From: Octopus vulgaris | Taxonomy: Eukaryota | NCBI GenBank assembly: GCA_951406725.2 | Contig: OX597830.1 | Location: 75,082,001-75,146,000, forward strand | Direction: 5' to 3' | Length of the DNA: 64,000 nucleotides | Shown here: positions 2,905-58,649 of the stretch, piece by piece | How the letters are laid out: each line of letters starts with the position of its first letter | Position numbering within the stretch: position 1 is the stretch's first letter | Translations under genes and position numbers: made by a program | Notes under the pieces: model-generated | What the model was told of the DNA's origin: nothing | The model's database searches: none | What the model saw: the letters and a program-made list of their open reading frames with translations, nothing else

Positions 2905-3295
2905 GCACACACACATGACGGGCTTCCACAGAGTTTCCTATTTCTTTATTGCCCACGATGAGCTAAACATAAAGGGGACAAACAAGGGCAGACAAACGGA
3001 TTAAGTCGATTACATCGACCCCAGTGCGTAATTGGTACTTAATTTATCGACCACGAAAGGATGAATGGCAAAGTTGACCTCGGCAGAATTTGAACTCAGA
3101 ACATAACGGTACACGAAATAGCGCTAGGCATTTCGCCCGGCGTGCTAACGTTTCTGCCAGCTCGCCGCCACGGAGTTTCCATCACTTGAATTCACTCACA
3201 AAGCATTGGTTGGGTCAGGGCTATTGTAGATATCACTGCCCCAAGTTGGCGAACACTGGACCTGAACCAAAACCTACGAGCTTGTTAACCATAGG
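2750..3295 (-). mobile_element. Diverged SINE family B copy interrupted by a SINE-A insertion
   Basis: B-type body (gacgggcttc, ttcactcacaaagcattgg, internal (CA)n) split at 2939-3169. Confidence 0.75.
2939..3169 (-). mobile_element. Full-length SINE family A (tRNA-like head, Tx1-type tail)
   Basis: Head ggcggcgagctggcagaaacgttagc (A box), gagttcaaattc (B box), core gcc.ttcatcctttcg.ggtcgataaattaagtacca, tail tttgtc...gggcaataaagaaata; flanking repeat ccac(a/g)gagtttcc at 2926-2938 and 3168-3180. Confidence 0.92.
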
Positions 3296-11102: not shown

Positions 11103-11931
11103 TAAAAATTTATAATATTCATTATCTGTCAAGAGTTTAAAGAAAAAAGGTATATTTTGTTTGTATCTCTTGCAGATTGTGTAACCCCATGGTAGTTTTC
11201 TTCCCCGTCTTGTTTCACTTGCTATTATTGCACAAAAGTGGTCACTTTGGAGGTTCTGCTATTGGCTTCACCTGGTTGCACTTTCTAGCAAATCAACCAA
11301 CTATGTCTTACGATTTATTGATGCATTTTCTCTCCTCTTCCTAGTAAGTACATCAAAGATATTAGAGATATTGTGTTGCAAATATTGAGATTTAGCAAGT
11401 ATCTTGAAGTTTTGGTATTTTTTAAAAATATAAGTGTATTTTCTAAAAGACATTCATGGAAGACTGGACCTATTATTGTCGCAAAAATCATGTCAAATAT
11501 TCCAAACCCAAATCTGTGATCAGAAATATAAATGCTCATTAATTGTTGAATATATAAGGACGACGAACTGGCTGAATCGTTAGCAGAGTGAATGGAATAT
11601 TTAGTGCCATTACTTCCGCCTTTATGTCCTGAGTTCAAATTTCGCCGAGGTCCAGTATGGCTTTCAGTTCTTTTGGGGCAATAAAGAACCAGTTAAGCAA
11701 TGAGCTCTATGAGACCGTCAACTAACGCATCCTTCAAAAATTTCAGACCCTTTACCTATGTTGAAATGTTAGGATATATATATCTATCCAAATATTATTG
11801 AAAGATATGTGTATCACCTTCGTGAAAGAAACGCAAGGAAGCAAATTTAAATAAATGGTTTCCATACCACGCATATTTTCCTTAAAAAATAAAAATGGTA
11901 TACTTTATACATTATGTCATTTATATATGTA

Positions 11932-18029: not shown

Positions 18030-18072
<43 letters not shown>

Positions 18073-27687: not shown

Positions 27688-27910
27688 TATTGCTTTATTG
27701 CCCAGAAGGGGCCAAACATAGAGGAGACAAACAAGGACAGACGAAGGGATTAAGTCGACGACATCGACTCCAGTACGTAACTGGTACATTAGTTATCGAC
27801 CCCGAAAGGAAGAAAAGCAAAGTCGACCTCAGCGGAATTTGAACTCAGAACGTAACGGCAGACGAAATACCGCTAAGCATTTCGCCCGGCGTGCTAACGT
27901 TTCTGCCAGT
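27688..27910 (-). mobile_element. SINE family A with Tx1-type tail
   Basis: Same head, core and tail as 2939-3169. Confidence 0.88.
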
Positions 27911-28355
27911 TAGTACCCAATCTTAGTACCAAACTTAATTCTTCAGACATGGCAGAGTTCGGGTATACATACACTAGACAGTATGACAGCATTATGAAAT
28001 ACCAATAGAAAAGAGACGGCATAGATGCTGAACTGGTACTTATTTGATCGGCCCCGAAAAGATGAAATGTCGATTTGACGGAATTTGAACTTAGAGCGTA
28101 AGGACAGACGAAATGCCGCTAAGTATTATACCCGGCGTGCTAAAGATTCTCAACTTACCACCCTAATAATAATGTTTGTGGTTTCTAGTTTTGGCACAAG
28201 ACCAGAAAATTCTGTTAAGTCGTTTACAGTCAATTGGTACTTACTTTATCAACCCCGAAAGGATGAAAAGCAAAGTCGACCTCAGCGAAGTTTTAAATCA
28301 GAATTTGAAAATAGGTAAAAATACAAGCTTGCTAACGAGTCAGCCAGCATGACGC

Positions 28356-30655: not shown

Positions 30656-31167
30656 CCGGATACCAACATGAAACCAGTATACATATTAAAATTACATTAA
30701 AACCTTTAGTGAGGTGAGCTAGTTGGCACCATGGTAAGATGATATCATCTATTTGGCTGAGAATTCTATAAAATAACTTACGATTAGCTTATTTTATGTT
30801 ATGGAATTTTTGGTCTTTTTTTATGATTTCTATATGTTTGGCAATACAATATGTTGACGAAAAACCCTTACTTAATAGATGCCGTTCAGACTGAAGTCTT
30901 AACCAAAAACATCAATGGACAATAAGGTTTTGTATCTGAAGATGCGAACAGGTGAGGTGCCTTGTAATTGGAATCACAGATACCTGTTGTGGAAAAGACA
31001 CAGAGTGAGTATGGTTGCATTTTCACTCTACATAGAATATTTGTGATACACGTAAGTATGATCTTTGGTAATTCTTTTATTTTGGGACTAACATGTATAA
31101 CTATATACATGTATGCTCCACTTGGCTGCATTCAAAGTGCACCAATAAAGTGGGCAATAAAGAAATA

Positions 31168-31266
<99 letters not shown>

Positions 31267-31308
31267 CATTATTATTATTATTATTATTATTGTTATTACT
31301 ATTATTAT

Positions 31309-32222
31309 ATGAAAACTCTCAAAATATTTTGTTTGCTATGATGGAAAGTCTCAGCTGTCCACATCCAGTAGACTAAGGTGACACTTGTATACTGGTCATG
31401 CTTCAAGAACCTTGCAAAAATTCTTGCAGTTCCAAGCAAAGCTGACTTTTGTAGGTGTTCTACCTTCACACTTGCACCAATCTTTTTCAGCCATGCTGGT
31501 AGTTGAGTGCTGATACTTCCAAGCGCACCAATTAATATTGTTATCACGTCTACTCTCTTCATTAACCACAACGTTCGTATTCCCCACTTTAAATCGTAGT
31601 AGGTGTCTAGGCCAATTGTAGCAATCTTCATTGTTATTGCCAGTTGTAAAAGACAACGGCCTCCCCCCTTTCTTGGCAGATAAAGTCGTTCTGTATCTGC
31701 CTTAGGGTGGTGCATTCTATGCATTGTCAACAGTTTTCGTATTTTTCTGTCGAGCTGACATATTTCAGTAATTGACCAGTTAACGATGTTGAAACTGTAA
31801 GTCACGACTGGTATGGCTAATGCATTGATCGTTTCGATCCTGTTTCTTGCATTCAGCTCTGTCTTGAGTATTGCTCTCACTCTTCGATAACATTCTCTCC
31901 TGATCCTTTCCTTCATCTCTGAATGCCTTATTCCGTCCCCTTCAATTACGCCTAGATACTTGTAGCTCTCCGCTGGGTCTAGTTCTTTTATGACATTCTG
32001 CTGGTCAAGGTTAACGTTAGATGTTTCTGTCATTTTTCCTTTGATAAAGGTAGCTTTTGCACAATTATCGAGGCCGAATTGCATTTTGATGTCGTCACTG
32101 AATTGTTTGACTATCGCTAGTAAGCCCTTGAGTTGTTGGTCATTTTTTGCAAATATTTTGATCAAACATTTTATATCCGTACTGCGCGTCATTGAGCGGT
32201 TTTGAGAGAGGTATTAAGGCTC
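31309..32222 (-). mobile_element. R4/Dong-type LINE fragment with two internal deletions, flanked by (TAA)n on both sides
   Basis: LIPLSKPLNDAQYGYK...FAKNDQQLKGLL..VKQFSDDIKMQFGLD.CAK...YKYLG...MHHPKADTERLYLPRKGGGR fused to DLKWGIRTLW...IGALGSI...LQKSALLGTARI; ATT runs at 31169-31308 and 32223-32391. Confidence 0.9.
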
Positions 32223-32362: not shown

Positions 32363-33884
32363 GATCATCATCATCATCATTATTATTATTATATTACTTC
32401 TCAGAGCGCTCTGTATTGTTTACTCTGGTAGATTCTCTGAGAGCGGACAGCAGCTTGCTGTCAGAAGCCTTACAGTGTCTCTTTCGGTGCAATATAGCTT
32501 TGATACTTCGTTTTAGATTATTGTGGGAGACATTCAACATCCAAGTACCAATCTTAAAATCATAGCTGTCCGCTGCAGAACAGCTTTTGCGGCTTACTCT
32601 GCTCTCAATTCCGATTTCTCTGATAAAATGACAATATTCGTTGAAGACATCATTGAGCTGGGTTTTACGCAAAATATTTATCGGCCATTTTCTCGGTTGT
32701 ACGCTCTCAGATAAAATTCGAGTTCGGTTTCGTCTTTCTTCATTTCGGGTTGATAAAATTACTTGTGTCAATGTAATCCACGTTGCTCCATGCTCTGTCT
32801 ATAATTGTTGGCTTTGTGCAATAATTTGAAAGAATCTAAAAGCATATTTAGTTAAAGAAATTTTACTTTCAAATTTCAAAATATGCCGATATCAGCTTTA
32901 TCGTTCATATATCTTGGCGTCTATAAATTTAATACCAATCAAAATCTGAGATTTATTATATGGAATGTTCTATTGACTAAAATATGTAGCTTATCTGCGT
33001 AGCTGAAAATTTATTTTGTTTCCTTACTAATTGTTTAGCCCTAGGTATGCTCTGAGTGGGTAGATCAATACTCAAAAGAACTCAAGCCATGACCCTCCCA
33101 TCCTACTCTCAGTCACTTTTTATTTATAACTTCATTATCTGTCCATTATGTCCATGTCTGTTGAAGATTAAAAATGTAATAGAGTTTTATAGATATCGCA
33201 TTTTGTAATTATTATTGTAGCTGTTGTTATTGATGTGGTGGTGCTTGTGACAGTGGTAGTAGCGGTGATGTATGGTGAGATGAGACTTCTGCTTTTTAAA
33301 AGAGAGTTTCGGTTATTTATGGCTTGTGAATCCATCAGAGAATGTTACGCTTTTGATAGCAAAATGGAATTATTCATTATCATGATGATGGTAATGTAAG
33401 TACATCTACATACGTAACCGAAACACTGCGAGTTCTTTCTCTCATTACCAATGAAACCTCTTACTTTACTTAATTAAGTCACTCACATATCAGCGATATC
33501 AAACATACCTCTGAAAGAATGAAATAGAAGATGTAATAGAGAAAGACGGAGAGAAAAAGGAGCAAGAAGATGATAGAGGAAGAGAGAGATAAAAGTGAGT
33601 TGTTTTCTATTGGGTTGCCTAACATGCAACGTGACATCAATATCAGTCAGTAGGTTTTCATGTTCCTCAGTAGAACTATATGATCTGAAGATAAGCAGCA
33701 ATTAGATAGCCAATGTTCCTCAAATCATACTCTTTGGACTTTAGACAATGGGTAAGTTAGAAAATGTAAGACCGGGATTTGAACTCAAAATTTAAAGAGG
33801 GAATAATGCCGCTTGACATTTTGCCCAGCATACTAAAGAATATGCCTTAACAAGAATACGTCTTAACAAGAATAGTAATAACCC

Positions 33885-34462
33885 TTTCTTCTAAAGGCCA
33901 AAAATCTTAAATTTGTTTGGAAGGGATTAGCCGTTTACACCTATCCAAGTGCTTCACTGGTATTTAATTTATTGACTCCGAAATGATGAAAGGCAAAGTC
34001 AGCCTTGGCGGAATTTGAACTCAGAATGTAAAGACAGACGAAATACCTATTTCTTTTCTACCCACAATGGGCTAAACACAGAAGGGACAAACAAGGACAG
34101 ACAAACGGATTAAGTCGATTATATCGACCCCAGTACGTAACTAGTACTTATTTAATCGACCTCGAAAGGATGAAAGGCAAAGTCGACCTCGGCAGAATTT
34201 TAACTCAAAACGTAGCCGCAGACGAAATACCTATTTCTTTACTACCCACAAGGGGCTAAACACAGAGAGGACAAACAAGGTCAGACAAACGGATTAAATC
34301 GATTATATCGACACCAGTGCGTAACTGGTACTTAATTTATCGACCCCCGAAAGGATGAAAGGCAAAGTCGACCTCGGCGGAATTTGAACTCAGAACGTAG
34401 CTGCAGACGAAATACCGCTACGCATTTCGCCCGCGTGGATATGATTCTGTCAGCTCGCCGCC
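33885..34462 (-). mobile_element. SINE-A tandem composite (two Tx1-tailed units plus an older A' unit)
   Basis: Junctions gacgaaatacc|tatttctt at ~34047 and ~34231; the last unit has a different, older tail. Confidence 0.88.
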
Positions 34463-34844
34463 TTAAAAAATAATAATATTAATGTTTTTTTTTAATTTTG
34501 GCACAAGCCCATCAACTTTGAGGTTGGGCTTTAGTCGATTACATCGATCTCAGTGCTCGACTGGGCCTCACTTTATCGACTCCGAGAGGATGAAAGGCAA
34601 GGTCGATCCCGGAGGAATTTGAACTCAGGATGTATAGGCAGACGAAATGCTGCTGAGCCTGGTGCGATAATGAGTCTGCCAGCACGCCGCTCTAACAATA
34701 ATAATAATCGTAACAATAATTCTATAAAATGAAACGACTATGAGTGCAACAATAGCAACAAGAATACAGAATAACACCAAAGTAAAAGAAATATACAGTA
34801 ACTGCAGCGCACAATACATCACCACCACCACCAACAACACCACC

Positions 34845-41721: not shown

Positions 41722-41919
41722 TTTATCATTACTGCAACAGTAACTATCTTTAGCATATCAGTTGTAGTTGTTGCTGTTACTGTTCTTAGAGTCCTTGCGG
41801 TAGTTATTTAGCCTCCAACCACCACCACCACCACCACAAACAATAACAACAATCCTTAATCAGCCCAGTCCCAGTACACGCGACACATGGTCCAAGACGT
41901 TTCTCACGTAGCAACGCAA

Positions 41920-42308
41920 GGCGGTGAGCTGGCAGAATCATAAGCACGCCGGGCGAAATGCTTAGCGGTATTTCGTCTGTCGTTACGTTGTGAGTTCAAA
42001 TTCCGCCGAGGTCGATAAATTAAGTACCAGTTACGCACTGGGGTTGATGTAATCGACTTAATACCTATGTCTGTCCTTGTTTGTCCCGTCTATGTTTAGC
42101 CCCTTGTGGGTAGTAAAGAATTAGGTAGTTCGTCTGCCGTTACGTTCTGAGTTCAAATTCCGCCGAGGTCGACTTTGCCTTTCATCCTTTCGGGGTCGAT
42201 TAAATAAGTACCAGTTACGCATTGGGGTCGATGTAATCAACTTAATCCCTTTCTCTTTCCTTGTTTGTCCTCTCTACCGTTTAGCCCCCTGTGGGCAATA
42301 AAGAAATA
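41920..42308 (+). mobile_element. SINE-A head-to-tail dimer
   Basis: Unit 1 ends gggtagtaaagaatta, resumes at ggtagttcgtctgcc; unit 2 ends gggcaataaagaaata. Confidence 0.9.
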
Positions 42309-44110: not shown

Positions 44111-44267
44111 GAGATATTACTGAATGTTATATGAGTATAGCTCTTGGGGTCCATAAAAGAAACACTTGTTGAATATTGGGGCAAGTGTAATCGAATTCCC
44201 TGAAATTGCGGTCCTTGTACTATACTTGTGCCACAATTTGAAACCAACGTTCGGGTGTAGAATGTAT

Positions 44268-44662
44268 TGTCTATTCTAGGCACAAGTGCAGAAATTTTTG
44301 AGGAATGTCCCGATCAGTAAGATCGATTTCAGTACGGAAACTGGTATTTAATTTATCGACCCCGAAAGGATGAAAGGCAAAGTCGACCTCGGCGGAATTT
44401 GAACTCACAACGTAAAGACAGACGAAATATATATTTCTTTACTACACACAAGAGGCTAAACACAGAGAGGACAAACTAGGACAGACAAAGGGATTAAGTC
44501 GATTACATCGAACCCAGTGCGTAACTGGTACTTAATTTATCGACTCCGAAAGGATGAAAGGCAAAGTCGACCTCGTTGGAATTTGAACTTAGAACGTAAA
44601 GACAGACGAAATACCGCTAGGCATTTCGCCCGCGTGCTAGCATTTCTGCCAGCTCGCCGCCT
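44268..44662 (-). mobile_element. SINE-A/A' composite inside one TSD
   Basis: Tx1-tailed unit joined at the tatttcgtc site to a unit with the gtgcctagaatag tail; 10-bp TSD tagaatgtat at 44258-44267 and 44663-44672. Confidence 0.88.
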
Positions 44663-44820
44663 TAGAATGTATAATAACTTATATAAGCATTCAAATGAAT
44701 GTTCATATGAATTTCTTTGGAGGAAGAGTCCTTGAGGAAGAGTGTATGTGTTATACTGAAGTGATGTATATGTGGATAAATTGGCATTAAACTGGTACGC
44801 TTACGTTTGGATATTAATAT

Positions 44821-46662: not shown

Positions 46663-47389
46663 CTGTTGTTGCTGTTGTTTATTTGTTTCCGACATTTGAA
46701 TCTGGTTCTCAGAAACCAGTGGTTATTGAAGTCAGTTCCTACCACTCACACAACTTAAACTACACCTAACGTTGCTGTTCAAGTTCTCCATGTTCCTCTT
46801 CTTGGAAAACATTAGTAGTATTAGTAACATTAGTAGTAGTTGCCGTTGTTTATCAATTTAGACGTTTCAGTATAATGTTTCTTTATTTTATTTTATTTTG
46901 TTTTTCTCTCTGTTTTCTTTTTTTTTTTTATATTCCCTGAGACTTGCTTGTCAGAAATGCTGTCGAAAATGATTTTATTATTGTTGTTGTTTTTATTGTT
47001 TTTGTTGTTGTTTTTTTTTATGAATTTAGACGTTTGAAGATGTTTTTCATCGACTTGTTGTTAGTGTTGCTGTTTCAACTACTGCCAACACCGTTTGTTG
47101 TTGTAGTTGTTGTTGTAGTTGTTGTTGTAGTTGTTGTTGTCGCTACTGCTGTTGCTGAGGCGAATGTTTATCAGGTGAGACACTCGAAAATGTCTTTAGA
47201 CATGTTCTAGCATTCACACTACTTTTTGATAGAGCCATCACCATTTCCACTACTAATTTTACTAATACTACCACCACAACCACCACCAACACTGCTACTA
47301 CTACTACCACTACTACTACTACTACTACTGACAATAATAATAATAGCACCACAGTTATTATTAATTATTACTACTACCACTAATAATCT

Positions 47390-47795
47390 TTTCTACTATA
47401 AGCATAAGGCTTGAAATTTTCGGGAGGGTTACAGTCGATTACCTCAAGCCCCAGTACTCAACTGGTACTTATTTTATCGACCCTTAAAGGATGAAAGGCA
47501 CATTCGACTCCGGTGGAATTTGAACTCAGAATATAGCGACGGCGAAAACACCTATTTCTTTACTACCTATTTCTTTACTACCTACAAGGGGCTAAACACA
47601 GAGAGGACAAAGACTGACAAACAGATGAAGTCGATTATATCGACGCCAGTGCGTAACTGGTACTTATTTAATCGACCCCGAAAGGATGAAAGGCAAAGTC
47701 GACCTCGGTGGAATTTGAACTCAGAACGTAGCGGCAGACAAAATACGGCTACGCATTTCGCCCGGCGTGCTAACGATTCTGCCAGTTCGCCGCCT
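47390..47795 (-). mobile_element. SINE-A/A' composite
   Basis: Young Tx1-tailed unit joined at ggcgaaaacacc|tatttctt (~47552) to an older A' unit, with a 15-nt tail stutter. Confidence 0.85.
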
Positions 47796-48113
47796 TAACC
47801 ACCACCATTAATAATTCTAATACTACAACCATCACAACCAAAGAAACCACCACCACTACTACTGCTGATACTTTTTCTAGCAAGGAAATCGGGACTGATT
47901 TAAATGTAGATCAAAAATCAGATATCCTCAATCTGTGTCCCTTTCGACAGAAAAAACACCACATGGATTAAAATACTCTCAATTATTCTTAAGGTAGTAC
48001 GAGAAAAGAACTAGATTTCCTTGCAGACTTGTAACAATTTGAATAACAGAGCATAAAAGCTCTCTCGACGGATAATCATTTTGTTGTTGTAATAATGGCG
48101 GTGACAACAGCGA

Positions 48114-48291: not shown

Positions 48292-48710
48292 TGCTGATGC
48301 TGTTTTTGTTGTTACTCTGCAGTTGTTGCTGTTGTTGGAATTTATTAATCTATACCCGCGATTCTTGATCAAAACGTGAAGATCCCTGAGAAAATATAGA
48401 GGAATTGGCGAGTGAAAATACTTTGTGGAACTGGAAAGCTCTTTACCATTGCACTTGAGGAAAGGCGGACTGTCAGTTAAAACGCAATCACTTCTGGGAT
48501 TTTTTATCGATTAAGATCATTAGTAGTGAAATTATTAAATGAATTAACTGACTTCTAGCTTTGTCAAAGTGTTTTTACCACAAACTGTGACGTCATCCAT
48601 GAAAACTGCTTCTCTTACTCCTTCTTTCAAGGAATCATTCCCAGCTCATTGTTTACATTTCGGCTTCTAATGGTTTATTTTATCCAGTTTGGTATTTATC
48701 AGAGGGTGAA

Positions 48711-49574
48711 GGCGGCGAGCTGGCAGAATCGTTAGCACGCCGGGCGAAATGCGTAGCCGTATTTCGTCTGCCGTTACGTCCTGAGTTCAAATTCCGCCGA
48801 GGTCGACTTTGCCTTTCATCCTTTCGTGGTTGATAAATTAAGTACCATCTACCCACTGGAGGTCGATATAATCGACTTAATACCTATGTCTGTCCTTGTT
48901 TGTCCTCTCTGTGTTTAGCCCCTTGTGGGCTGAGTTCAAATTCCGCCTGTGTTTAGCCCCTTGTGGGTAGTAAAGAAATAGGTATTTCGTCTGCCGCTGC
49001 GTTCTGAGTTCAAATTCCGCCGAGGTCGACTTTGCCTTTCATCCTTTCGGGGTTGATAAATTAAAGTTCCATCTATGCACTGGGGGTCGATGTAATCGAC
49101 TTAATACCTATGTCTGTCCTTGTTTGTCCTCTCTGTGTTTAGCCCCTTGTGGGCTGAGTTCAAATTCCGCCTGTGTTTAGCCCCTTGTGGGTAGTAAAGA
49201 AATAGGTATTTCGTCTGCCGCTGCGTTCTGAGTTCAAATTCCGCCGAGGTCGACTTAGCCTTTCATCCTTTCGGGGTTGATAAATTAAGTACCATCTACG
49301 CACTGGGGGTCGATGTAATCGACTTAATACCTATGTCTGTCCTTGTTTGTCCTCTCTATGTTTAGCCCCTTGTGGGTAGTAAAGAAATAGGTATTTCGTC
49401 TGCGGCTTCGTTCTGAGTTCAAATTCCGCGGAGGTCGACTTTGCCTTTTATCCTTTCGGGGTTGATAAATTAAGTACCATCTACGCACTGGGGGCCGATG
49501 TAATCGACTTAATACCTATGTCTGTCCTTGTTTGTCCTCTCTGTGTTTAGCCCCTTGTGGGTAGTAAAGAAATA
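48711..49574 (+). mobile_element. SINE-A tandem tetramer
   Basis: One head, then junctions aaagaaata|ggtatttcgtc at 48981, 49205 and 49390; TSD ggtatttat(c/g)agagg at 48691-48705 and 49575-49589. Confidence 0.93.
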
Positions 49575-49851
49575 GGTATTTATGAGAGGCTTATCTGGTG
49601 TTCGAACACGGTTTTCTACATTTAGTCTCCCATTTAGTGACGAATTTAATGAAGCTAATGCAAAAATTAATATTTAATGCTCATGTTATTGCATGAATTG
49701 TCTTATTATAGAAGACTAAATTAATTTTCACTTTTAAGTGTGGTTGTGCTGGATTCCGCATTCGTAAAAATGTTGCACGAAAACAATAGGAAAGAGTTTA
49801 AAAATATTGGATTAAACACTAGACGTGCGCATGTGTGAGATACAAATATGC

Positions 49852-51373: not shown

Positions 51374-51601
51374 TATTTCATATAATTTGCCATTTAGGCA
51401 TTTACAAAGAGGGGACAAACAAGGACAGACAAATATAAAGGGTGAAGTAGCTTAACACAGTTACAATTTTCGAATGAAATTACGGATAAGATTATAAGCA
51501 ATGAATTTTACGAAGGCAATGTTTAAAAATATTAATGATCATGTCGAAGGAGGGACATCCAGCCATCCGGGTAGAACCTTTACTTTCTGATCCGGTCACA
51601 C

Positions 51602-54600
51602 TTACCTGGTGCCAAACATACCCATCTTGTATGCCACAGGCTTCCATCTTTTCACAAACATATCTCGTGACAGACACCTCTTCTCCAGCCTGATTTTGCT
51701 ACTGAGGTGATAACTAAAAAAGTTAATCAACCCCTGGCCGGAGACAAAGGTGCCTGTCACTATACCTTTCGTACGCGTCTTCCATACTGTTTCTTTCAGT
51801 ATGGCTACTACACAGAAAAAACAAGCCTTTCTTTCCCTGTTAAGGAAAGGGGGCGGCACAATCTCGATGATAGACTCAGCTGATAGCTGTACTCTTCCCA
51901 TCACTGACAACAGTTGTTCAACAAAAGCTATCAGTCCCGATAACTCCGGACACTCCACGAATGCGTGCAAGACGGTCTCCCTATCCTGCTCACATCGCGG
52001 GCATGTCGGCGAGACGGCACTACCGTGCCTTGACAGCTTGTCGCGAACAGGTAAAGCCGCACGGAAACACTGCCAGGCCAGGGATTTCTGGTAATTATCC
52101 AGATACCCCGGCCCGAACGTCCTCCGGAACAGGTTGACCAACTGATTTTCATCGTAGCCCAGGGTCTCCCCAAGGCGTCTTCGGACTTAATCTCCACTAA
52201 CCCGCTATAGAAATCCGTGGTGGAACTCCTGTTGCCGGCGTTGCCCACCCGAGATAGTAGCTGGAGCGCCTGACGGCACTCCAAATGCCATTCACTCAGT
52301 TTAGGTCTCCGCTTGATCCATGCACCGTTAGGGATGTTAACTGGGGAAGGTAGAACCGGACGTGCGGTGACCACACCTGCTCTCCATCCAGGTAAAGCCA
52401 GAGGTGCCTCAACCTTAACGCGAGTTTTCGCATCCTCAGCCAAGGCATCCCTAGCCCACCCTTTAGCGGTTTCTGGCAGCAGACAGAGCGCTTTACAAGT
52501 GGCTTTCCTCCTTTCCACAAAAATCGGAAAAGGATTCTCTCCAACTTGTTCAGCCACAAATCGGGGCAAGGCACCACGGTCAGACGGTAGGTGATTACTG
52601 ATGCTATAAACATCTGCACCACCTCCGCCTTCCCTAGCAGGGATAACGCCCGCCCAGACCAGGTCTGGGTTAGAGCGGTCACCTTGTTGGCCACCTCACT
52701 CCAATTTTTCTCAATCTGGAGGTCTGGCCCGAACCAGACTCCGAGCAGCTTAACAGGACCTTCCGTCCAACGCCCTACGACGTTATTGGACGGCATCGGC
52801 TTGCCCCTCCAGGTGCCGAGTTGCAAACCGACCGACTTGTCCTTGTTAACCTTTGCTCCTGCCACCGCCTCGTAGCATTTGATGGCCTCTTCCACCACTG
52901 GAAGCTGTCACCCGCATACGCCGTAGCTCCTCTTCCACACCATAGATCATGCGGCGCGCCCCCTAGTGCCTCCAACTTCCGCAGCAAAGGCTCAAGAGCC
53001 AATACGTATAGGAGCGAGGACAGGGGACACCCTTGACGAACTGAACGCTCGATCCTGAACGGCTTCGAAAAGGAACCGTTCACCTTGACTACAGACTCGA
53101 TGTCGCTATACAAAGCAGCGATCCAACCTCGAAAGGTCGGGCCTAGGCCAGCCTCTCCGAGGACCGCCGCCAGGTACCGATGGTCGACCCTATCAAATGC
53201 TTTGGACTGGTCTAAATGTACCAGTGCTCCCCCTACGCCAGAAAGCTTCCCCACCCTCTCTAAGGAGTAGCGTATAAGGTGGAGATTGTCGTGGATCGTT
53301 CTGCCGGGGATAGCGCAAGTTTGTCCACGACCCGCGCCAACCTTTTTGCTAGCACCTTGGCCAGAATCTTTAACTCTGTGTTTAACAGAGTTATGGGCGT
53401 GAAGTTCCCTATCTCGTCCCCCTTGTTCGGGTCCTTCCTGATCAACGTCACCGCCCCCCGGCTCGCAGACTTGGGAATTCTCCCATTCTGCTGCCAGTTG
53501 GCGTAGACGCTAGCCAGCAGGTGCCCGAACAAGTCTGGCATACTTCTATAAAATTCATAGGGCAGACCATCGAGACCCGGCGACTTCTCCGCGGGGCACT
53601 TGCCCAACACCTCGATTACTTCCTCGGCTGTGATTGGCCCTACACAGCACTCAGCCTCTCGTGTCGAGAGGCGCGGGCCACCAGACAGGAAGTCCCTAAG
53701 GGCCTCACCATGATCCAGCGTCCCGCACCTCCCGAACAACTCGGCGAAGTGCTTGTGAAGTGCCTCACACATCTCGTCCCGCTTCTTGATCGTGCATCCG
53801 TTTTCATCAACAAGAGACCCAATTGTGGCATCGTTTCCACGCTGTGTTTCTATCGTACGGGCCCATCCGGCAACATTAATTCCCTCACGGCCCAATGCTC
53901 GTACTTTAGCCCGGACTCTACATCCCTCATGTTTGGTTTTGAGGTGACGGTCTAATGCCGTTCTCGCCGCTAAAATGTGAGATGCAGAGCCCAACCTCAA
54001 CGCCTCCTCTAAGTTCTTAACTAGTTGCCCTTCTATTCTAGCCCTATCTAGTCTTAGTTGTTTACTAAATCTAATGGACTCGAATCGAATGGCTCTTTTG
54101 GGGTGAACCACCACCGGTTATTAACCACGGCTCCGGTTAACGCCCTCTGCACTAACACCTTAATCCGGCTACGGTATGCCTCGCGTGTCAAAATAGACTT
54201 GTTCAGCTTCCAGTAGCCGGTTCCTATCTTAAGTGTGCTATCTATGTCCAGTCTACACGTGACCATTCTATGGTCAGTATAGGGCACCTGGACGAGCTGT
54301 GGACAACTAAAACTAGACTTATCTCTAGTTCTTATCACTATCCTGTCTAGATAAGACTTGAACCTTCCGTCGCCACTCATCCAGGTCCACTCTGGGACGT
54401 TCGGATGGTCAAGTCTGTAACGATCTGCCAGCTGAAACCGCTTAAGCAGATCCACGAGACGTGAGTTCACTTTCCTATAGATCGAGCCAACGCTATCGAT
54501 GTGTACGTCAACGATAGCATTAAAGTCCCCTAATATCACTAAAGTCTTCGACGTCACGAGAAAGCCCTCTAGGCGCCGATAAAAATCAGTTTGGAAACCT

Positions 54601-54947
54601 CTAGCACAAGGTGCATAGAGTCCGATCAACCTGAAGGCCTTACTGCTGTATGTCACATCAAGGACGACCAGTCCACCTTCTGGGTCTACATAGATTGTAC
54701 TTGTCTGTAGAGCCAAGTCTTTACGGATCAGTACCACTACGCCCCCTCGCCCTCCGGTCTGGCCAGGAGACATGATTTTCTCGTAGCCATTCAGGAGAGG
54801 CGAGAAGGTTTGTAGGCTGTCCAGCTTGGTCTCTGTAGCAACCATCACATGTATATCATGTGATCTGAGGTCGTCGAGGAAACAAGCCTGCTTCCACTTC
54901 GAACTCAGACCACGCACATTTAAACAACCAAGGTTAAGCGAAGCCAT
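51602..54947 (-). pseudogene. Tx1-like ORF2 (APE endonuclease, reverse transcriptase, C-terminal CCHC), about five frameshifts
   Basis: MASLNLGCLNVRGL, GDFNA, YLDRIV, TDHRMV, GYWKLN (APE); KSPGLDGLPYEFY, PITLLNTELKILAK, LDQSKAFDRVDH, VRQGCPLS (RT); AYA truncated before DD; CPRCEQDRETVLHAFVEC. Confidence 0.93.
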
Positions 54948-54964
54948 TACAAAAAGTAAAAGTT

Positions 54965-56391
54965 CTACTTACATTTCGTTGGAGAGGTGGGGGCCGATCT
55001 CACCACACGTTTGTGGGCCCCTTCTTTCTCCTCTTTCTTCAGATAGTCCGGCAAGTTCGCGATATGCCGGATGGCGTTTGGGTGTCTGTCTTTTAATTGT
55101 TTGAACGTTGTTTCCGCAATCCACGCGTGTCTATTTCGATCTTTGTATTTGTTGTACAGTCTTGCTGACTGATGCTGAACCACAATATCGTTTATGTATT
55201 TGTCTTGTGTGTCGAATTCAATTAATATGAGTTCATTTTCTTTTTTGTCTTCTTTTTCTGGGCCAGTTGAGCGGGATTTTTTTTTCCGTGTCTGTGGTGT
55301 GTTTTTGTTTTTATTATTTTTTGTAGGGGATGTGGACGGGGATGCTGCACGAATTCTTTTACGAACTGGTGTAAATCCCCCCTCTGATACCTCCATGGTA
55401 TCGTCTGGGGTAGCAATAGTTTGTTCGGTAGGCGCCGCAGATTTTAGGGGGGTGGGAGGTTTTAATAGTGTAGGGGTTTGTGAGTGCGAGGGCTGGGGTT
55501 TTTCTTCAGTCTGTTTTGGGGTTGGCACCGTAACAGCAGGAGTGGGATTTTTTGTTTTTGTAGGGGTATGTGTGTTTGCAAGGGTAGGGACTTTTTTATT
55601 ATCTGAGGGGCCTGGTGTCTGCGGTTTCTTTTGCTTGTCTGGACAGTCTACACGAATGTGGCCCTTTTTGCCGCAGGCGTAACAGGTGGGTTTTCGGCCT
55701 TCGACCTGTACCCTGAGGGCTACGTTCTCGCCCACGAGCACCCTCTCAGGAAGGAGCTGCAGGTCCTCCGCTGTTCCTTGAATTAATATATTAATGTTAC
55801 GCCCGAGCCAAAATAGAGGGGCAGAGCATGTTACTTGTAGTATTTTTATTTTGTCCGCCCTTTTATATAACAGGGCGGCCACTACCTCTACCGGATCTAC
55901 TTCCGGCGGGGCTTCTACAATCCTGACCCGGGACGTCCTGCGTCTCCTATAGCTTGGGAAAAGTACCACCTCCTTGGTTTTTAGGGGGTTCACAGAATGC
56001 CCGCGGGCCATTTCTTCCCCGAGAAGCGGACATCCACAGTGCCATATGCCCGTCCCCTGGCGAAGTACACGATGTCCTTCCAAATCGGGGACAGGCATTT
56101 CTCGATGGTGCTTTTTTCAAAGTGTTTGAACCTTCTGCTTTGTGGACAGAAAGTTTTAAACACTACGGTCCGCTTCTCGGTCTCCACGATACTGGCGGAG
56201 GGTGATATTTTAACATCACCACCCTCCTCTTGTATTCTTTTAAATAGCTCGACGAGCTGGTTGACATCGATGTCAATGTTCTCGGTAGCCAATGCGGCTA
56301 CCGCAGAAAATTTTTTAACATTGCTCTCCTCAAGAGCACTACTTTCGTGAATAATTTCAACAGACATTATTCTGTTGAAATTAGACAACAC
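54965..56391 (-). pseudogene. Tx1-like ORF1 (gag-like, zinc knuckle), one frameshift near 55990
   Basis: ORFs 55990-56391 and 54965-56098 overlap in different frames; CYACGKKGHIRVDC knuckle, then a Pro/Thr/Lys-rich linker; ends 17 nt before the ORF2 ATG. Confidence 0.85.
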
Positions 56392-56756
56392 AAAAATTAC
56401 GAGTATTGGTTTCCCACAAAACTGGGAAACCTATAGAAAGTTTTTCTTCCAAAGTAGTTCAAAAAAGCAGTTCAAAAATTCCAATTCCCACCCCCATTCG
56501 GGGGAGGGGCACGAAAATAGTCTGGCAGGACTATATATAGTCACGTAAATAAAAAGCCACAGTGGCTAACAGTTCAACGGTAAGAAATTATTCAATTATT
56601 TCCCGGTAAATCCGGAGAACAAGACAGTTCAGCAACGTTTAAAGGCAAATTTTCAGTAGTAGGAATTCAACAATTAACAACACAGCAAAACTCTTACCGG
56701 GAAGAAAACGCGTCCAAACCGTAGTACGGTAAGCAAAGTCACTCTTCTGTCAGTGA

Positions 56757-56894: not shown

Positions 56895-58065
56895 TATATA
56901 TTTGTATGTACGTATTAATAAACACAGTATATATTTTTATGAGCTGCTAATAATTTCATGCGATAGAAACATCCCAGACAGCATTTTGAACACGCCTGGT
57001 GCCATCACTCAATACTCAGGCTATGCCCACATGGCAAAAGAAAATAAAACTGGATGATAGGATGAGAAAAAATCGCGAAGAGGCGAAAACGGATTAGATG
57101 TGAAACGTGGAAGGTTGAAAATCGGTAAACGAAAACGAAAAGAGAAAAGAGAAAGAGGAGGAAATAGAGTTATGCCCCTTTTCATCGTAAGGTCATAAGG
57201 CTGAATGGATAGTGCCCTACAATCTGTGTTACAGCTGCTCAATCTAGAGTGGGTGGTATTTTCCACCAGAAACTTATCCATATATTTACAACCGCTGAAA
57301 ATTTCAGATCTAGAATTCAGTAGAGAGGTGGAGGGCTTAGATCTGAGAAGTATTTGTGCGTTTCAGCAACGAATAGCGTCAATTTGTTTTATCTGTTGAT
57401 ATATATTGAAGACGTTTCAACTATTTTCTACTTTATTGAATGTGGTGTGTCGTTAGACTTCAAACCCTCATACGTGGCTTTACTTTTCACCCTGTGTCAG
57501 AAAGAAGATATGTAGTTAGCATAACGATTTTTGAGATCGCATTCATTTAGCCTAATGTAGCTCTTCTTTTCGGTTACGTTATCAGCTTGCATTGCTGTTA
57601 AAAAATGTAGTCTGGGATGTTTTCATCGCACGAAACCATAAACAACACTTAGAAATATAAAATGACTTGGAAGAACAACTTGACATTTTTTATCTGCAAC
57701 AAAAAAAAATAATATCAAATAGTCCTTGTGGAATTCTTCTGTAGTGTAGACTGTAATTGCAACGACATTAAGGAGCTTTTTGCAAGGTTGTTATGCATGG
57801 AAATGCAAATCATCATGTAAAAAATTCCTCTCTCTTCTTACTCTGTTGCTGAGCAATTAATTGGCAATGATGGGAAGAAAAGTAAAAGGGAAAAAAGTTC
57901 GATGAATGCTTTTTAAAATATGAATTATTTTTTATTCTGTAAGGATTGTCAAACTTTGTAAAATATTTAATTTAGCATAATTTATTTGTTTTGCCTTATA
58001 CCATACTGATGAATTCAAATAAGGATGAAATAGCGCTTTACATAGCTACCAATGACTAGAAATAT

Positions 58066-58475
58066 TGGTTTCAAATTTTGACACTAGGCCAGCAGTTTTA
58101 GGGAAGAGGCCAGGTAAAATAAATCAACCCATGCTGAAATAATACATATTTTATCGACCCTGAAATTCAACCTTGGCAGATTTTGAACTGAGAACGTAGC
58201 GACGAATGACAGACCACTAAACATCTTGCCAAACGTGCTAACGATTCTTATTTCTTTATTGCCCACATGGGGTTAAACATAGAGGGGACAAACAAGGACA
58301 GACAAATGTATTAAGTCGATGATATCGACCCCAGTGCGTAACTGGTACTTATTTAATCGACCCCAAAAGGATGAAAGGCAAAGTCGACCTCGGCGGAATT
58401 TGAATTCAGAACGTAACGGCAGACGAAATACGGCTACGCATTTCGCCCGGCGTGCTAACGATTCTGCCAGCTCAC
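58066..58475 (-). mobile_element. Young SINE-A joined to the A-box region of an older A' copy
   Basis: Junction cgtgctaacgattct|tatttctttattgccc at ~58248. Confidence 0.85.
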
Positions 58476-58649
58476 AAGCTTAACAACTAGAAATATTAAG
58501 ATGATTATAATATGAAAGAAAAACAAATTCAATGTAGATATTCTCTGCACTTCTTTTTTATTCATTTATTTAAAAGTCAAACGACTAATCAAGCCCTAAC
58601 TTAATGTAGAAGGTTTCTGTCTTCCCTACGATACCATGAATATAAACTT

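Follow-up and report, generated by a model that had tools for sequence, protein, structure and literature searches.

The octopus repeats considered here have their closest described parallel in the SINEU-3/Tx1-Mar system of crocodilians, in which a Tx1-type LINE moves a SINE, about 90% of the insertions lie at one site within another repeat, and tandem copies are common (PMC4494074). Statements on published systems, here and below, refer to the cited portions of the sources. For SINEU-3, 313 of 347 copies were found beside one transposon (Kojima 2015, PMC4494074). Annealing between template and target at the nicked strand has been reported for the LINEs R2Ol and SART1Bm and cited for R1Bm; in these elements base pairs form between the nicked target and RNA letters that are either internal or derived from read-through, and the pairing sharpens a site that the endonuclease has already chosen rather than choosing it (PMC6795142, PMC7265360). 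Tandem repeats of partial SINEs with a leading head are known from squamates, where a SINE-derived satellite is defined by at least four middle monomers made of part of a SINE (PMC10702118), and from bivalves (PMC11481361). In the double insertion described by McGurk and Barbash (10.1101/158386), site preference gives rise to dimers that can expand. Members of the MetaSINE superfamily combine a tRNA-like head, a conserved 66-bp Meta domain right after it, and exchangeable LINE tails (Nishihara 2016, PMC4824008).

In this study, we describe a SINE subfamily in a window of 64,000 nucleotides of Octopus vulgaris DNA (contig OX597830.1; the window is the whole stretch analysed, and all coordinates are positions within it). 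We call this subfamily tagt, and its sister subfamily caat, after letters in their tails. As far as sequence can tell, tagt copies stand almost always before the motif GGTATTT, mostly at the boundary between head and body of copies of their own family. The tagt system is thus a target-specific SINE variant with its own family as the target, whether the cause is RNA pairing or an endonuclease. It resembles SINEU-3, but the target of the latter is a foreign Mariner element; the specificity of SINEU-3 is common to its LINE, whereas the LINE in the octopus window, a single copy, lies at another site; and SINEU-3 tandems keep their 5' ends and a sandwiched duplication, whereas the octopus units are headless, in register and free of it (PMC4494074). 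Of the two, only the octopus system includes an untargeted sister subfamily, whose tail is nearly identical. R1Bm, R2Ol and SART1Bm are autonomous LINEs whose endonuclease picks the site (PMC7265360, PMC6795142), whereas the octopus SINE is non-autonomous and its RNA would bias the site. The squamate and bivalve arrays are attributed to recombination and concern a few percent of copies or subtelomeric loci (PMC10702118, PMC11481361), whereas in the octopus one fixed junction dominates a dispersed subfamily with unrelated hosts. The dimer junctions of McGurk and Barbash hold the duplication of the locus (10.1101/158386), whereas the internal junctions of the octopus array hold the SINE's own letters. 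The architecture may be like that of MetaSINEs, for which the cited portion names neither an octopus member nor a Tx1-type tail (PMC4824008). The O. vulgaris annotation leaves most active SINE families unclassified and, in the portion cited, makes no mention of nesting (PMC13282606); the corresponding portions of PMC4758252, PMC5804259, PMC5786205 and PMC3414825 hold nothing on this SINE. The literature searched contained no self-targeting SINE and no tandem SINE of octopus; Repbase, Dfam, SINEBase, and Ohshima and Okada 1994 lay outside the search and may describe it.

The SINE family and its partner LINE

The window is AT-rich, with abundant microsatellites, and contains about 20 loci of a short, non-coding SINE family in which a conserved central domain follows a tRNA-like head. 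We take this domain to resemble the Meta domain of the MetaSINE superfamily, and the A-box-like and B-box-like stretches were assigned by eye from box consensus sequences. ARAGORN predicted no genes on the SINE and Rfam gave no hits. The family is dispersed in many copies, as seen from these loci and from its very high summed depth in the sequencing runs X1 and X9. Several alternative tails occur within it, among them the tagt and caat types, which are only a few letters apart. In X1, an intermediate 'taat' tail accounts for about 9% of the depth at 49564. Target-site duplications measure 15 bp at the array described below and 13 and 15 bp at two caat copies; clear duplications were absent at 27688 and 31167. 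An apparent caat tail at 11676 was rejected as a look-alike, being really a decayed central domain. Searches with the tail patterns returned no loci in viral contigs and none in metagenome contigs.

A LINE with a homologous tail lies 1.8 kb from the array.

51374..56756, - strand: L1/Tx1-group LINE, frameshifted, near full-length

Its Pfam domains are Exo_endo_phos (an APE endonuclease), RVT_1 and zf-RVT, with a zf-CCHC zinc knuckle in ORF1. Among solved structures the nearest is human L1 ORF2p (E 6e-17, vs E 2e-3 for R2). A LINE endonuclease in the window shares 84% identity with a protein of Octopus bimaculoides. The label 'Tx1' is a tentative assignment. The last 60 nt of the LINE are homologous to the SINE tails and share their gaaata end; over the terminal stretch 51374-51432, 41-45 of 57 letters match (41 to tagt, 45 and 41 to caat), so the LINE is no closer to tagt. 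The LINE interrupts the head of another tRNA-like SINE, directly behind its A-box-like stretch, and is flanked by a 16-bp duplication. The first-pass annotation had asked whether Tx1 LINE insertions share GGTATTT; the single LINE in the window speaks against it, as its 16-bp duplication does not start with that motif. Among the non-tagt insertions carrying this tail, three of six lie inside SINEs, a hint of a general taste for SINEs. A piece of another LINE-like reading frame, with ATT microsatellites on both sides and no Pfam hit, occupies 31305-32213 on the - strand.

In the window, GGTATTT follows tagt tails and does not follow caat tails

Tagt-type tails end at ten junctions in five loci, comprising nine motif matches and the second copy of a duplicated tail end at 47553; three of the ten are internal junctions of the array and non-independent events. 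Directly behind these tails, GGTATTT is exact at six junctions (48981, 49205, 49390, 49575, 34231 and 34047), has one mismatch at two (42124 and 47552) and two mismatches at the remaining two (44431 and 47567), which amounts to 8/10 within one and 10/10 within two mismatches in the window. For random flanks the expectation is 1e-4 for an exact match and 0.02 within two mismatches. None of the five caat-type ends in the window (2939, 27688, 42308, 58249 and 31167) has the motif within two mismatches. Counted by loci, the motif follows tagt in 5/5 and caat in 0/5 (Fisher p 0.008, post hoc). A further motif match at 18034 was dropped as a microsatellite edge. In four of the five tagt loci a family copy lies behind the last tagt tail, well over the 20% in one repeat by which a target-specific SINE is recognized.

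The caat copies served as controls.

2939..3171, - strand: caat copy with a 13-bp duplication, not GGTATTT
27688..27915, - strand: caat copy without GGTATTT in its flank and without a clear duplication
58050..58481, - strand: caat unit inserted in register into an old head of the family, at another position, with a 15-bp duplication

At the last of these, the head shows four differences in its first 16 letters, followed by the 15-bp duplication and then by young sequence; the insertion, at 58249, is at position 17 of the old head. In-register joining is therefore not peculiar to tagt. At 31150-31167 there is a very short caat tail fragment beside an ATT microsatellite.

The central observations of the first-pass annotation thus hold up well. 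Its coordinates for the array and the tail ends are correct, and so is its contrast between tagt tails, which are followed by GGTATTT or a near variant, and caat tails, which are not; the end at 31167, which it lacked, fits the same rule. Joining at GGTATTT, with insertion into independent family hosts at the head/body boundary, is likewise borne out, and the refuting result of random flanks at solo tagt copies did not occur, the solo copy having GGTATTT.

A four-unit array with one head and one duplication

The locus on which the subfamily was first noticed is made up as follows.

48691..48705, + strand: 5' copy of the target-site duplication, starting GGTATTT, 14/15 identical to 49575-49589
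48709..48757, + strand: single tRNA-like head, with an A-box-like stretch at about 48721-48732
48758..48980, + strand: unit 1, with a B-box-like stretch at 48783-48793, the conserved central domain and a LINE-derived tagt tail
48930-48968, + strand: extra 39-bp piece in unit 1, reading as a further unit with two deletions
48981..49204, + strand: unit 2, starting at GGTATTT, its start like unit 3 and its end with the 39-bp piece of unit 1
49205..49389, + strand: unit 3, 185 bp
49390..49574, + strand: unit 4, 185 bp, tail ending gaaata
49575..49589, + strand: 3' copy of the target-site duplication, followed by unique DNA

The flank at 49575 had been described as unrelated genomic DNA whose duplication begins with GGTATTT, and we agree: no other site in the window matches the 15-bp duplication at 13/15 or better. 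Four changes are common to all four units and occur in 0/9 other units; a fifth is common to the four and present in one other unit. The internal junctions read ggtatttcgtc, the SINE's own letters, and not the duplication of the locus. Double insertion at the locus duplication was for this reason ruled out as the origin of the array. Because its units share private changes and have no locus duplication between them, the array most likely arrived as a multimer, in one event from a multimeric template with one local duplication rather than in four landings; unit 2 is the likely product of that duplication. The same two facts tell against the proposal that such arrays are built by successive insertions. 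With four units in all, two of them middle ones, the array falls short of a SINE-derived satellite.

The letters at 49569-49582 and at like junctions read almost as a palindrome (gaaata gg tatttc). Neither the tagt tail nor any of three junctions folded better than shuffled sequences, and we therefore claim no structural role for the palindrome; the tail hairpins of one caat copy and of the LINE gave z of about -2.

Composite loci with independent hosts

Elsewhere in the window, tagt units are joined to other members of the family.

33870..34464, - strand: one diverged head, two tagt units, and body and tail of another subfamily
41918..42308, + strand: one head, tagt unit, caat unit
44260..44663, - strand: one head, tagt unit, and body and tail of another subfamily
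47375..47796, - strand: young-type head, tagt unit, and strongly diverged body of another subfamily

Compared with one another, the units that follow the final tagt tail at 34, 42, 44 and 47 kb show a likeness of 71-79% over their whole length and of 57-69% in the tails; among tagt units it is 86-98%. Tagt units thus precede different subfamilies at one position, and we therefore reject a single dimer master; the downstream units are not identical, as an origin of all composites from one such master, named in the first-pass annotation as a refuting result, would require. At 34, 44 and 47 kb the first letters past the last junction are of the host type from the start.

All five nested loci, the four of tagt and the caat one at 58249, have a single head, a point on which the earlier description was silent. 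At 34.4 kb the head carries 6/43 differences and the body 5/151. The head is older than the body there and at 58.4 kb; at 42 and 44 kb this age difference is slight, and it is reversed at 47.8 kb, where the head is of the young type (1/44 differences) and lacks a host-type duplication. To account for the young head at 47.8 kb, either an old head must have been replaced or the whole composite must have moved. A 1-nt deletion is common to the heads at 34.4 and 44.6 kb, and the downstream units of these two loci share a variant that is found in no tagt unit.

Two details of the composites may be recorded. The tail end at 47553-47582 (- strand) is an exact 15-nt doubling that starts with a GGTAGT word and could stem either from slippage on the template or from in-register insertion of the element into its own tail. 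At 34205-34270 (- strand), a tagt-enriched T>C at unit position 18 could pair with an A>G of the tail across the junction; this is a single candidate pair, and the run consensus past the junction keeps T.

Contigs of sequencing runs

Contigs of X1 and X9, guessed to derive from RNA, were aligned to 49519-49638 at 95% likeness; four of the 24 listed runs were used, the other two being the raw-read runs X22, with no reads on this stretch, and X23, with 45 reads of a different tandem unit, and runs of low word share were excluded from the evidence. Summed depth in X1 stays in the millions through 49582 and drops 100-fold in the next bin, X9 behaving alike, while the unique flank behind the array has a flat depth of 47.6 in X1. 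Division of the former by the latter gives tens of thousands of copies, a rough figure, as depth is not a copy number. Across end treatments, 69-96% (X1) and 70-98% (X9) of the tail weight continues through the 7 nt, with 0.2% expected by chance; these shares are back-calculations from summed contig depth, which does not equal copy number. With unclipped word ends the share passing GGTATTT is 0.96 (X1) and 0.78 (X9), with overhangs of 2-3 letters it is 0.69-0.85 (X1) and 0.70-0.83 (X9), and one setting gave an impossible share of 1.08. Among the matches listed, 64 of 134 partly aligned contigs in X1 and 45 of 57 in X9 leave behind 49581 into SINE body. In X1, at least eight, at least six and at least nine contigs diverge after 4, 6 and 10 matching letters, respectively, into long, heterogeneous flanks. 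The presence of GGTATTT behind tagt tails is therefore confirmed and extended beyond the window to the contigs of X1 and X9.

Discussion

The reading that we favour, with a probability of roughly 0.55, is that tagt RNA reads through its tail into the downstream site and pairs with ends nicked by an L1/Tx1-group LINE. The first step is what the sequence shows, namely the homology of the SINE tail to the LINE 3' end and duplications of 13-16 bp. Termination by RNA polymerase III needs a run of T residues, and in its absence the polymerase reads through. Four consecutive T residues are absent from the consensus unit; within the array they occur once, through a change private to unit 4, and past the array end they do not recur for 38 nt. 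As the only four-T run of the array is private to one unit, polymerase III would read through, and, in the second step, the RNA of a nested copy would carry GGUAUUUCGUC... behind its tail. Given that most tails stand before a family body, most tagt RNAs would carry target letters in this place. In the third step, the extension would pair with the nicked strand and favour GGTATTT, for which family copies would be both the best and the commonest sites, and every nested insertion would become a new guided template. In the fourth, the upstream target end would anneal in register to the homologous cDNA without addition of a second head; we propose this step because each composite has one head, which fits such joining. 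Lastly, arrays such as 48709-49574 may arise from multimeric RNA in one event and be lengthened by local duplication.

The first-pass annotation had instead proposed an RNA that ends in GGUAUUU and primes by pairing. Priming by pairing is plausible from the sequence. An RNA end at GGUAUUU is unlikely, because the site has only three T residues, in a context shared with the internal site, past which transcription has to continue, and the consensus unit has no TTTT; a read-through RNA is the likelier form. Points against pairing are that the LINE of the window is no closer to tagt than to caat, that in R2Ol, SART1Bm and R1Bm the endonuclease chooses the site, and that the near-palindromic junction, in a predicted self-fold that does not exceed shuffles, could hide the pairing letters.

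Less likely, although it deserves a serious hearing, is that a particular Tx1 family with a GGTATTT-specific endonuclease mobilizes tagt and that RNA pairing is incidental. Tx1-clade elements are often site-specific, SINEU-3 being 90% in one transposon, and target choice is reported to be mainly set by the endonuclease (Kojima 2015, PMC4494074); for O. vulgaris, 13 L1-Tx1 families have been catalogued as recently active (PMC13282606). Such specificity explains the solo GGTATTT site equally well, and the LINE in the window, too, landed in a SINE head. However, it needs a switch of partner through a handful of tail substitutions, and it has to accommodate an intermediate taat tail, and one LINE with a homologous tail and five of five caat copies at other sites. 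That the LINE and the caat copies, whose tails are only a few letters from those of tagt, lie elsewhere points to the RNA rather than the enzyme.

A reading without any targeting appears improbable: a few pre-formed dimer or multimer masters with older tails would have spread whole, and arrays would have arisen by unequal crossing-over, like SINE-derived satellites. The private changes common to the four array units, the recombinant look of unit 2, the older subfamilies at the outer ends of the composites at 34, 44 and 47 kb, and the arrays known from reptiles and bivalves (PMC10702118, PMC11481361) would suit it. However, the downstream units come from different subfamilies, the array closes at a tagt tail with a duplication starting GGTATTT in unique DNA, and X1 contains long unique flanks after partial GGTATTT matches. 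Template switching at a terminal GGUAUUU redundancy, or recombination of a 185-bp circle into family copies, would explain why several units share a single head and a single duplication, and template slips are indeed suggested by the doubled tail end at 47553-47582 and by the extra unit with its two deletions, but we give this very little credence, because a circle predicts young-type letters past the junction where host-type letters are found, and because either route leaves the genomic GGTATTT at 48691 unexplained.

Beyond read-through and pairing as such, we put forward, with some reserve, a wider picture in which the SINE, through its own read-through RNA, dictates where a borrowed LINE enzyme of loose specificity lands. 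A chance self-insertion would have started a self-reinforcing loop, leading to tens of thousands of copies at one family position, to bodies overwritten behind existing promoters and to the spread of multimers. If pairing is true, a passenger element steers its own landing, a natural case of RNA-guided retargeting of target-primed reverse transcription; if the endonuclease is the cause, the passenger's own family is still a new target for a Tx1-type system. The endonuclease is regarded as the main determinant of where non-LTR elements insert, and two sister subfamilies with nearly the same tail, only one of them targeted, make the share of RNA pairing in site choice directly testable from an assembled octopus genome. 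Through in-register insertion, an old SINE promoter can be taken over by a new body and tail, and SINE tandem arrays can be started; module exchange and the start of such arrays are both treated as open questions in the literature cited here. For repeat annotation, composites of this kind inflate the counts of SINE families.

Two observations touch on the reach of the family and its tails. In a pattern search, an unrelated metagenome contig (L001:560-770) was found to hold a 26-nt piece of the same central domain behind a tRNA-like head. Among raw reads of the run X23 on 49519-49638, 45 come from a short tandem unit that consists of the tail alone, of the taat type, followed by ggaatt.
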